Of a DNA stretch of 45,870 nt, positions 5,407 to 6,051 are shown piece by piece. The DNA is from an uncultured Clostridia bacterium (lineage in GTDB: Bacteria; Bacillota; Clostridia; Lachnospirales; Lachnospiraceae), in NCBI GenBank assembly GCA_947087455.1, contig CAMUCK010000023.1, positions 1 to 45,870 on the forward strand, written 5' to 3'. The notes below the pieces were generated by a model that did not search any database, was not told where the DNA came from, and saw only the letters and a program-made list of their open reading frames with translations. The translations under genes were made by a program, and so were the position numbers. Every line of letters begins with the position of its first letter. Position 1 is the first letter of the stretch.

Positions 5407-5503
5407 GGGGACGTAGCTTAGTGGTAGAGCAAAAGAATTATGTCTAGAAAGACATAAACAGCAATATTTTGTAAATTCGTGGGTTCGAATCCTACCGTCC
5501 CCG
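5407..5503 (+). ncRNA. tRNA-like structured RNA A (candidate Y-RNA/YrlA-type tRNA mimic)
   Basis: 7-bp acceptor-like stem GGGGACG/CGTCCCC. D-arm AGCTTAGTGGTAGAGC. T-arm GTGGGTTCGAATCCTAC. The anticodon-arm position holds a 5-bp stem (GAATT/AATTC) enclosing a ~34-nt insert with hairpin TATGTCT-AGAA-AGACATA and the conserved AACAGCAAT motif. Confidence 0.6.
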
Positions 5504-5534
5504 TTTGAAATAGGATAGAGATTGTTGATAGAAA

Positions 5535-5672
5535 GGGATGTAGCTTAGTGGGGAAAGCAAATAAACAGATGTGTTTAGAAAAACGCAGACAGCAAATTTT
5601 TGGCGACTCTTTTGAGTAATAGGTTCAAATCCTAATGTTTATTCGATCACAGGTTCAATTCCTGTCATCCCT
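5535..5672 (+). ncRNA. tRNA-like structured RNA B (longer; carries an extra internal T-arm-like element)
   Basis: Acceptor-like GGGATGT/(T)CATCCC. D-arm AGCTTAGTGGGGAAAGC. 8-bp stem AATAAACA/TGTTTATT encloses hairpin GTGTTT-AGAAAA-ACGC, then ACAGCAAAT and TAGGTTCAAATCCTAA. Terminal T-arm CACAGGTTCAATTCCTGTC. A T-run follows. Confidence 0.5.
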
Positions 5673-5709
5673 ATTTTTGTAAGTAAATAATAGAAGTTAA
5701 AAATAAAAA

Positions 5710-5818
5710 GGGACGTAGCTCAGATGGGTAGAGCATATGAAACAAATGTGTTTAGAAAAACACGAACAGCAAATCTTTAATACCTCATAGTGTCACAGGT
5801 TCAATTCCTGTCGTCCCT
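5710..5818 (+). ncRNA. tRNA-like structured RNA C
   Basis: Acceptor-like GGGACGT/(T)CGTCCC. D-arm AGCTCAGATGGGTAGAGC. 5-bp stem TATGA/TCATA encloses a 44-nt insert (hairpin TGTGTTT-AGAAA-AACACG, then AACAGCAAAT). T-arm CACAGGTTCAATTCCTGTC. Confidence 0.6.
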
Positions 5819-5927
5819 GTTTAAAGATAAGAATAGTCTCAAACAGCATAAAATAACTTTCACGATTAGAGGGTAACAAAATGAGACTAGAAAGATACAA
5901 TTTTGTAGTCTTTTTCTTATTTTTAGA

Positions 5928-6051
5928 GAAGAGTGTAGCCAAAATGGGATAGGCAGCGGATAGTATGAAAGAGACTTGTAAAAGTCTCAAACAGCATTTA
6001 CATACATAGGGGCTTCGTAAAGATTTGGTGGTTCGAATCCACCCACTCTTC
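5928..6051 (+). ncRNA. tRNA-like structured RNA D (divergent member)
   Basis: Perfect 8-bp terminal stem GAAGAGTG/CACTCTTC. Canonical T-arm GGTGGTTCGAATCCACC. Internal hairpin GAGACTTGTAAAAGTCTC followed by AAACAGCAT, which makes a 15-nt exact repeat with 5834-5848. Confidence 0.45.

Follow-up and report, generated by a model that had tools for sequence, protein, structure and literature searches.

What are the tRNA-shaped RNAs that an uncultured member of the Lachnospiraceae encodes in tandem beside a gene for a Ro60-like protein, and are they bacterial Y RNAs? The locus lies on contig CAMUCK010000023.1 of assembly GCA_947087455.1, of which positions 1 to 45,870 nucleotides (nt) were analysed, hereafter the window. 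At 5407-6051 on the plus strand there is an array of four co-directional elements, A to D, placed between a rhamnose mutarotase gene and a 520-amino-acid (aa) open reading frame (ORF) of the DUF2828 family, which starts 62 nt further on the same strand. Ro60 and Y RNAs form a classic RNA-protein complex known from RNA quality control and autoimmunity, and to our knowledge bacterial Y RNAs have so far been found only beside TROVE-annotated genes. A sequence-only reading of this DNA had proposed Y RNAs of the YrlA type. We propose that the RNAs would work like Y RNAs without being YrlA members. In other words, they are probably Y-RNA analogues bound by the Ro60-like DUF2828 protein, with a tRNA scaffold that would serve processing or recruitment.

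tRNA-shaped bodies and a shared hairpin

All four elements follow one order: acceptor 5' strand, D-arm, a hairpin module, T-arm, acceptor 3' strand. The Rfam tRNA model (RF00005, threshold 29 bits) scores A, B and C at 47.6, 50.5 and 51.0 bits; D falls under threshold and was found with a custom detector. In A, B and C the Rfam alignment covers the acceptor stem, D-arm, T-arm and the equivalent of the anticodon stem, and the 7-nt anticodon loop is replaced by insertions of 38, 74 and 44 nt, respectively. The sequence-only reading was right in placing four tRNA-like elements here, each with an insert in the anticodon-arm position; their acceptor stems are 7 base pairs (bp) long. None has the 5-bp anticodon stem and 7-nt loop with U33 and an anticodon that mark a tRNA, the loops being 38-74 nt or missing altogether, and ARAGORN calls none of the four as a tRNA. 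A covariance model built from 56 family members (R1) scores C at 93.8, A at 79.7, B at 79.0 and D at 67.6 bits, against 34.7 bits for the genuine tRNA-Leu of the window. All four acceptor stems are perfect. Their strands are complementary and covary within each element but are mismatched between neighbouring elements, which shows that the tRNA order, and not the YrlA order, is the right one.

The elements also share a hairpin followed by a short motif. A TAGAAA-type loop with ACAGCA had been described for all four; hairpin and ACAGCA are indeed present in each, and A-C have the loop TAGAAA with ACAGCAA, but D has the loop TTGTAAAA and the motif ACAGCAT. The count of four was incomplete, because a fifth copy of the module, X, lies between C and D. 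In X the helix strands sit at the two ends of the unit and are not joined by a loop, and a hairpin and a T-run follow, to about 5922. With X the array comprises five small noncoding RNAs, whose modules are on the strand of the gene, 117-655 nt ahead of its start at 6114. All five fit the profile of what we call the CAGCAA module, that is, a helix of 6-8 bp with strands S1 and S2, a G directly 3' of S1, and directly 3' of S2 a linker of 3 nt ending in A and then the motif; X matches the position profile of 225 open-form modules described below. In A-C the G after S1 is the second base of the loop because the top pair is lost.

The minimum-free-energy fold of A is a cloverleaf plus the hairpin (z = -4.4). 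In the fold of B, a 7-bp stem (5560-5566/5637-5643) surrounds the module and two more hairpins; the second T-arm-like module noticed in B from the letters alone is confirmed, and T-arm-like hairpins recur within open-form modules at other loci. A contiguous 5-bp equivalent of the anticodon stem (5736-5740/5785-5789) surrounds the module of C, and GTATG (5963-5967) with CATAC (6001-6005) makes a possible upper helix flanking that of D. The fold of X pairs 5834-5841 with 5882-5889 (z = -3.1). As had been stated, the region holds no credible ORF, its only one being short, on the minus strand and without a Pfam match (Table 1).

Table 1. Features of the window, positions counted from its first letter; S1 and S2 are the strands of the module helix
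Feature	Positions	Strand	Description
Element A	5407-5503	+	97 nt, tRNA-shaped; acceptor GGGGACG/CGTCCCC (7 bp), D-arm, T-arm, discriminator G; without anticodon loop, without encoded CCA
Module of A	5438-5464	+	S1 5438-5445, loop AGAA 5446-5449, S2 5450-5457, linker A, CAGCAA 5459-5464
Element B	5534-5673	+	140 nt, tRNA-shaped (Rfam tRNA, R1 and fold); acceptor AGGGATG/CATCCCT
Module of B	5571-5595	+	S1 GTGTTT 5571-5576, loop AGAA, S2 AAACGC 5581-5586, linker AGA, CAGCAA 5590-5595
Extra T-arm-like hairpin within B	5620-5634	+	TAGG TTCAAAT CCTA; preceded by small hairpin 5605-5617
Element C	5709-5819	+	111 nt, tRNA-shaped; acceptor AGGGACG/CGTCCCT; without anticodon loop
Module of C	5748-5772	+	S1 GTGTTT 5748-5753, loop AGAA, S2 AAACAC 5758-5763, linker GAA, CAGCAA 5767-5772
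Element X	5834-5890	+	Fifth module copy; open Y-RNA-like topology, no tRNA body; S2 TAGTCTC 5834-5840, linker AAA, CAGCAT 5844-5849, 33-nt interior, S1 GAGACTA 5883-5889, G 5890
Element D	5929-6051	+	123 nt, tRNA-shaped; acceptor AAGAGTG/CACTCTT, discriminator C
Module of D	5971-5997	+	S1 GAGACTT 5971-5977, loop GTAA, S2 AAGTCTC 5982-5988, linker AAA, CAGCAT 5992-5997
DUF2828+DUF7788 gene	6114-7676	+	520 aa; database copy from ATG 6126, 516 aa
ORF overlapping the array	5793-6143	-	116 aa; no Pfam match
Rhamnose mutarotase gene	5077-5394		Stop codon lies before the array
ORF	415-2970	+	851 aa; no Pfam/NCBIfam match
ORF	3858-4973	+	371 aa; no Pfam/NCBIfam match; weak PHROG match
tRNA-Leu(CAA)	37208-37290	+	59.6 bits; no encoded CCA; only genuine tRNA in the window

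The CAGCAA module in relatives and phages

We sampled 160 loci whose proteins are 54-66% identical to that of the window, plus one at 98% identity (L001). Of these, 137 were non-redundant, 127 with enough flank. With a detector that required a T-loop, 7/7 acceptor pairs, U8 and a D-arm we found 645 tRNA-shaped elements, none of them on the opposite strand and the majority no more than 1.4 kb upstream. The lengths have two modes, ordinary tRNAs at 70-89 nt and elements bearing the hairpin and motif at 110-133 nt; CCA is encoded after the discriminator in about 30%. At least one long motif-bearing element lies within 1.5 kb upstream, on the gene strand, in 119 of the 127 loci, and the remaining eight have weaker tRNA-like matches or open-form modules only.

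In a structural alignment of 56 diverse members (A2), 93% of cells are paired in the specified structure versus 63% in shuffles, and the covariation score is 0.77, against 0.21 in shuffles and about 0.12 in slid controls. Pairing of the acceptor, T- and D-stems is partly imposed by the detector. That of the module hairpin is not, and each of its 6-7 pairs shows compensatory changes, one pair being G:C in 54 of the 56 members; RNAalifold independently yields this hairpin with CAGCAA unpaired. Covariation, which the sequence-only reading had suggested as a check on its fold, supports the tRNA body plus the module hairpin. The nucleotides that make tertiary contacts in tRNA (U8, A14, G18/G19, A21, G53, T54, T55, C56, A58 and C61) are invariant, so that a tRNA-like L-shape is expected.

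The anticodon region is more heterogeneous. Among 220 distinct long motif-bearing elements, 61 accommodate an intact 5-bp stem with a canonical 7-nt loop if the module is drawn as a bulge of the 5' strand, and 76 have a contiguous stem around the module and no loop, like element C; the rest are irregular. We had drawn the insert as the loop of an anticodon stem, but many relatives, although not A and C of the window, are better described by an arm that leaves the 5' strand of an intact stem. Since 34 of the 61 are GTT, we do not read these anticodon-like loops as a decoding set.

The array of L001 differs from that of the window by five substitutions and one 13-nt deletion, which fall in spacers, linkers and unpaired positions and, in one case, in the motif of X. 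None falls in a helix, which is consistent with constraint, the data being too few for inference. The sole length difference lies in the spacer between A and B, where the 13 nt at 5514-5526 (GATAGAGATTGTT) are not in L001.

The module can be followed without reference to the tRNA body. Counting exact CAGCAA in the 1.5 kb upstream of the 137 non-redundant genes gives 712 copies on the gene strand and 19 on the opposite strand. Open matches of 6 bp have a high chance background, and our statistics therefore use 7-bp stems plus the G, with opposite-strand controls. By this measure a perfect partner strand followed by G accompanies 54.6% of the gene-strand motifs (103 in hairpin form, 286 in open form), versus 1 of 250 controls. 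Open units are mostly about 60 nt long, and a locus may hold up to about ten module copies. The position profiles of the two forms coincide: S1 is G-N-G-N-N-T-T with G next in 88-94%, S2 is A-A-N-N-C-N-C, and a 3-nt linker ending in A leads to CAGCAA, with A-rich sequence before S1 and T-rich sequence after the motif. It follows from this coincidence that the hairpin loop (G-T-N-A...) of the tRNA-embedded form is the 3' tail of the open form. The A-rich and U-rich flanks may form an upper helix, although A/U-rich sequence pairs in this way trivially.

Hairpin and open forms are thus circular permutations of each other, and what stays invariant across the family is the module and not the tRNA body. 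This reverses the earlier view of the insert as an add-on to a tRNA: the insert is what is kept, and it also occurs without a tRNA body in X and in many phages.

A reverse scan of IMG/VR with the pattern CAGCAA-N(20-50)-GGTTCGANTCC returned at least 120 stretches, with 19 strict tRNA-embedded modules among the matches listed. For 12 of the 19 a DUF2828 homolog (36-68% identical) lies on the same strand, 100-3251 nt away; 3 of the other 7 sit in stretches shorter than 1.7 kb. The linkage of gene and module holds both ways, from RNA to gene and from gene to RNA.

Among phages the module stands beside the DUF2828 genes of Felix O1, Lolly9, Listeria LMTA-148, Bacillus Tsamsa, an Enterococcus phage, a Staphylococcus phage, Campylobacter CP81 and cyanophage B23, and also of Mycobacterium phages. 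In Felix O1, LMTA-148, Tsamsa, the Enterococcus phage, CP81 and B23 the gene adjoins a co-directional tRNA array. Open modules number four in Felix O1, where they lie between tRNAs (L162 5713-6545), three in LMTA-148 (upstream of the gene), three in the Staphylococcus phage (downstream), two in CP81, one in the Enterococcus phage and several in Tsamsa; they occupy unannotated gaps or tiny 'hypothetical' ORFs next to the gene. Lolly9 has three modules downstream of its gene. In the middle one (L163, about 5544-5690) the ends form the CAGCAA helix, which encloses a T-arm, a closed acceptor stem and a D-arm; this is the true YrlA topology, and the RNA gives a partial match to the Rfam YrlA model RF02553 (37.7 bits). 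In B23 an open module is followed directly by a tRNA-embedded copy annotated 'tRNA-Undet'.

Some annotations in these phages deserve mention. The embedded copy of B23 (L171 4351-4460) is 107 nt long with the motif CTGCAA, and Tsamsa has a GenBank feature of the 'tRNA-Undet'/'tRNA-OTHER' type beside its DUF2828 gene (L165 2465-2637). Small 'hypothetical protein' ORFs downstream of the Staphylococcus phage gene (L167 4010-4357) and ORF140 of CP81 overlap modules and are probably not genes. The tRNA region of LMTA-148 holds a match to the ROOL RNA model (RF03087; L164 2469-3020; 90 bits against a threshold of 99.1) about 1 kb upstream of DUF2828 and the three modules there, with RtcB ligase genes about 3 kb downstream.

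A Ro60-like protein and its presumed RNAs

The protein downstream of the array has an N-terminal helical-repeat domain and a vWA domain whose MIDAS motif, DGSGSM, is invariant in 19 homologs. Pfam reports DUF2828 and DUF7788 and no TROVE, both here and in all six phage homologs tested, and the protein falls in PHROGs family 850, 'RNA-binding protein' (E = 7e-128). The top 11 Foldseek matches to its AlphaFold model (predicted local distance difference test, pLDDT, 72) are all Ro60/TROVE proteins aligned over the full length, at E = 3e-7 to 1e-4; the next-best match has E = 0.03. The predicted fold has the helical-repeat ring and the C-terminal vWA domain with MIDAS by which Ro60 is recognised at the level of structure, and on this model the DUF2828 protein is a remote Ro60-like helical-repeat and vWA protein, which we presume to be the partner of the RNAs. 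The sequence-only reading had called the neighbour a TROVE/vWA gene; the vWA domain and a Ro60-like fold are borne out, the TROVE assignment is not found by sequence, and the genomic signature of Y RNAs, RNAs adjoining such a protein, is present. The family is large: close relatives exceed 7900, clustering at 50% identity gives 8075 clusters (E <= 0.001), and 710 records are from phages. Annotations go no further than 'RNA-binding protein' or, in mycobacteriophages, 'Ro-like RNA binding protein'.

A conserved module linked to a Ro60-like gene suggests that these RNAs would be functional analogues of Y RNAs. From the structure, conservation, two-way linkage and fold computed here, we infer that they are transcribed, processed and bound, and what their role would be. 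By analogy with Ro60, the module of helix plus CAGCAA is most likely the DUF2828 binding site, acting as does the Ro-binding stem with its GNCGAA or GGUCCGA motif, and the remaining RNA would be effector or scaffold. In X and most phage copies, the two ends of an RNA of about 60 nt form the helix. In A-D it is capped by a loop, and a complete tRNA-like body holds the whole module in its anticodon arm. Such a body would let RNase P and 3'-end tRNA processing release defined, stable RNAs from one array transcript, and would give stability and perhaps, as proposed for YrlA, a handle for tRNA-binding factors. Phages would reach the same end via open modules placed between tRNAs. The biological role is probably RNA or tRNA surveillance, or phage counter-defence.

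The phage literature offers a parallel. The Bas63 protein gp130, encoded with tRNA genes directly downstream, resembles Ro60 in structure; it counters the Ppl defence system, its deletion sensitises the phage to Ppl, and the authors speculate that some of the adjacent tRNA genes are its Y RNAs (PhageMaP preprint, PMC11482910). Since Bas63 belongs to the genus Felixounavirus, we treat gp130 as orthologous to the Felix O1 gene, by taxonomy and not by sequence comparison.

Several observations weigh against the explanation by Y-RNA analogues. No sequence-level match of the protein to Ro60/TROVE was found, its sequence profile matched no PDB entry, and the structural model is only moderate (pLDDT 72, template-modelling scores 0.4-0.55). 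X and D carry CAGCAT instead of CAGCAA, and in L001 the motif of X is CAGCGT. About 28% of long elements retain an intact anticodon stem-loop, which a binding-site model does not need. For three tRNA-embedded modules on viral contigs no DUF2828 homolog was found in the 9-14 kb examined, and two T4-like phages (Vibrio, Aeromonas) that bear the gene show no clear module within 2.5 kb. Finally, a promoter and terminator scan of the window was uninformative, with 5 promoter-like sites versus 3.4 expected and no plus-strand terminator.

Could the elements instead be precursor tRNAs with a new kind of short intervening arm, which is excised and the halves religated with the help of the DUF2828 protein and the ligase of some loci? 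Removal of the arm in the 61 drawable elements does leave a perfect 5-bp stem and a 7-nt loop of the form Y-U-NNN-R-A with varied anticodons, about 30% encode CCA, 22 loci have an RNA-ligase-like ORF, and the Listeria phage has RtcB near the gene. However, A, C and 76 of the 220 members have no anticodon loop, the module also stands free at about 60 nt without a tRNA body in the window and in eight phages, and the predominance of GTT is not a decoding repertoire. The heterogeneity of the anticodon region and the free-standing copies argue against tRNA splicing, and we know of no bacterial endonuclease for such an arm. We regard this explanation as quite improbable.

We give a similarly small chance to the idea that the modules are cis-acting sites on the leader of the DUF2828 mRNA, serving autoregulation or transcript processing, and not trans-acting RNAs. 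It would suit the Lachnospiraceae copies, which lie directly upstream on the same strand with the last element 62 nt before the start codon and no terminator in between. Yet the modules of Lolly9, the Staphylococcus phage and Felix O1 lie downstream of the gene or among tRNAs, copies reach about ten per locus, and the tRNA bodies hold all signals for excision by tRNA processing; autoregulation could, moreover, coexist with a role in trans.

A partner other than DUF2828 is slightly less probable still. The candidate is a Band-7 protein, whose gene lies upstream of the array in 47 of the 137 loci, often in the order Band-7, 176-aa ORF, array, DUF2828, 111-aa ORF. A predicted tRNA associated with Band-7 (b7a-tRNA) is cited in a preprint on YrlA structure, in whose passages on it this tRNA-like noncoding RNA is tied to SPFH/Band-7 and RNA-repair genes and said to occur sometimes beside Rsr (bioRxiv 10.1101/312249). 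Those citing passages describe a strong resemblance to authentic tRNA and mention no extra arm or CAGCAA; compared by description alone, b7a-tRNA may be identical with some of the elements here. However, the window and about two thirds of the loci have no Band-7 gene and modules occur in all of them, the phage loci examined bear the gene and modules with no annotated Band-7, and the DUF2828 linkage holds in both directions.

That the elements are ordinary YrlA-family Y RNAs serving a canonical Rsr/Ro60, as first proposed from the letters, is very unlikely. A tRNA-like D-arm, T-arm and acceptor beside a Ro60-like gene invite the identification, and there is a weak RF02553 match (E = 0.0024). 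The match reaches 26.7 bits against a threshold of 69, however, and runs from the T-arm of B to the D-arm of C, across the 37-nt spacer between two elements whose acceptors covary within and not between them. No G.CGAA occurs anywhere within 5400-6060, so the GNCGAA(N0-1)G motif of YrlA is absent, the neighbouring protein has no TROVE match, and A-D lack the YrlA topology, in which the RNA has its ends in the Ro-binding stem and a T-arm, a loop-closed acceptor and a D-arm follow. YrlA is encoded within about 4 kb of a TROVE-domain Ro60 ortholog and on its strand; here the gene 62 nt downstream on the same strand resembles Ro60 in predicted fold alone. At permissive thresholds Rfam reports only tRNA and the sub-threshold YrlA match in the window array; it reports tRNA only across 19 homologous loci, and tRNA plus a near-threshold ROOL RNA and a partial YrlA match across 23 related loci.

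Decay can be dismissed: tRNA pseudogenes or an insertion-disrupted tRNA array would fit the three Rfam matches and the rejection of all four elements by ARAGORN, but not perfect or nearly perfect helices in which 56 members show compensatory changes, an insertion that is the most conserved part, an architecture kept at 54-66% protein identity and across phyla, and helices unchanged in the 98%-identical relative. The earlier statement that these are not ordinary intron-containing tRNAs stands; they are not pseudogenes either, and we treat them as conserved, structured, gene-linked RNAs.

Known systems, implications and further features

Having set YrlA membership aside, we note how close the likeness of the proposed Y-RNA analogues to YrlA remains. 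Both are small RNAs encoded on the same strand beside a Ro60-type ring and vWA gene, often in several copies, and both combine a protein-binding helix bearing a short motif with a tRNA-like domain that keeps the tertiary nucleotides of the D- and T-arms, the helix emerging at the place of the anticodon arm. The differences are those of a permutation. YrlA ends in its Ro-binding stem and has a loop-closed acceptor, whereas the RNAs here end in an open 7-bp acceptor and have a loop-closed helix; their motif, placed 3' of the helix, is CAGCAA instead of GNCGAA(N)G, and their protein is DUF2828, not TROVE. The middle Lolly9 RNA, with CAGCAA in YrlA topology, joins the two designs. The YrlA family was defined by GNCGAA(N)G plus a permuted tRNA domain in a search of TROVE-annotated genomes only (Chen et al. 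2014, PMC4201824), and the DUF2828 family therefore lay outside that survey.

The open form has its own counterparts. Yrn1 of Deinococcus radiodurans, the metazoan Y RNAs and Yrl1/Yrl2 of Thermus phage phiLo also form a terminal helix from their 5' and 3' ends, as X and the phage copies do; they have an upper stem, an effector loop that varies and a bulge or internal loop that is conserved, and are encoded beside the protein gene. Yrl1 and Yrl2, CGAA-motif Y-like RNAs with a canonical Ro60, are a precedent in a phage (PMC12135203). Those RNAs differ from the module in carrying a GGUCCGA or CGAA motif and in serving canonical Ro60, and for them binding and the tethering of PNPase are shown, whereas the module is a predicted binding site.

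Large inserts in tRNA-like bodies have precedents too. Transfer-messenger RNA (tmRNA) has a tRNA-like acceptor and T-arm body with a large foreign domain, is matured by tRNA enzymes, and includes circularly permuted, two-piece members. Unlike the elements here, it has no normal D-arm, receives alanine, acts on ribosomes together with SmpB and contains a tag reading frame. Engineered tRNA scaffolds for recombinant RNA place their cargo in the anticodon arm, as A-D do. In the literature on DUF2828, on Ro-like proteins and Y RNA-like RNAs and on b7a-tRNA we found no published description of these RNAs; key b7a-tRNA and Y RNA papers lay outside our coverage, so an earlier description is possible. 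No RNA partner of DUF2828 was found in the searchable literature.

The module is a concrete candidate ligand for DUF2828 that can be searched for by sequence. It explains some 'tRNA-Undet' and tiny hypothetical-ORF annotations beside DUF2828 genes in phages, and offers a natural case of one RNA module that occurs on its own and also, circularly permuted, within a tRNA scaffold. Tractable phages would allow direct tests of binding and function.

A broader and more doubtful extension is that DUF2828 and the CAGCAA-module RNAs form a second, unrecognised Ro/Y-type lineage working in tRNA-centred conflict. The complex would sit in or beside tRNA arrays and be matured by tRNA enzymes. In its tRNA-embedded form it would offer tRNA-targeting nucleases, or repair enzymes, a nearly authentic tRNA that in some cases has a real anticodon arm and that would act as decoy, sensor or handle for recruitment. 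If true, this would explain the sensitivity to Ppl on loss of the Felix O1-type protein, and the lineage would span gut bacteria in their thousands and over 700 sequenced phages, Felix O1-like and P100-like (Pecentumvirus) Listeria phages among them.

Upstream of the array, a NUDIX gene lies between the 851-aa and 371-aa ORFs. At L038-L047 and 40 more loci, the stretch from -2.7 kb to +1.9 kb relative to the gene holds an SPFH/Band-7 gene, the 176-aa ORF, the array, DUF2828 and the 111-aa ORF, the two small ORFs having no Pfam match; other loci have nearby ORFs that resemble an RNA ligase (499 aa), adenylosuccinate synthetase or a tyrosine recombinase.

Directly downstream of DUF2828, one subgroup of loci has a class-II tRNA-Leu-like gene of 130 nt (L108 5373-5502, L116 4609-4738, L118 4664-4792, L120 4612-4741, L132 4609-4738, L136 4612-4741, L154 4785-4914). 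Its anticodon loop reads CTT[~46-50 nt]AAAA, with the insertion between positions 34 and 35, the site of the group I intron of tRNA-Leu(UAA), and far too short for such an intron. The insertion has conserved ends, GGGACTTG...CACCAAAAATCCC, and no CAGCAA module.

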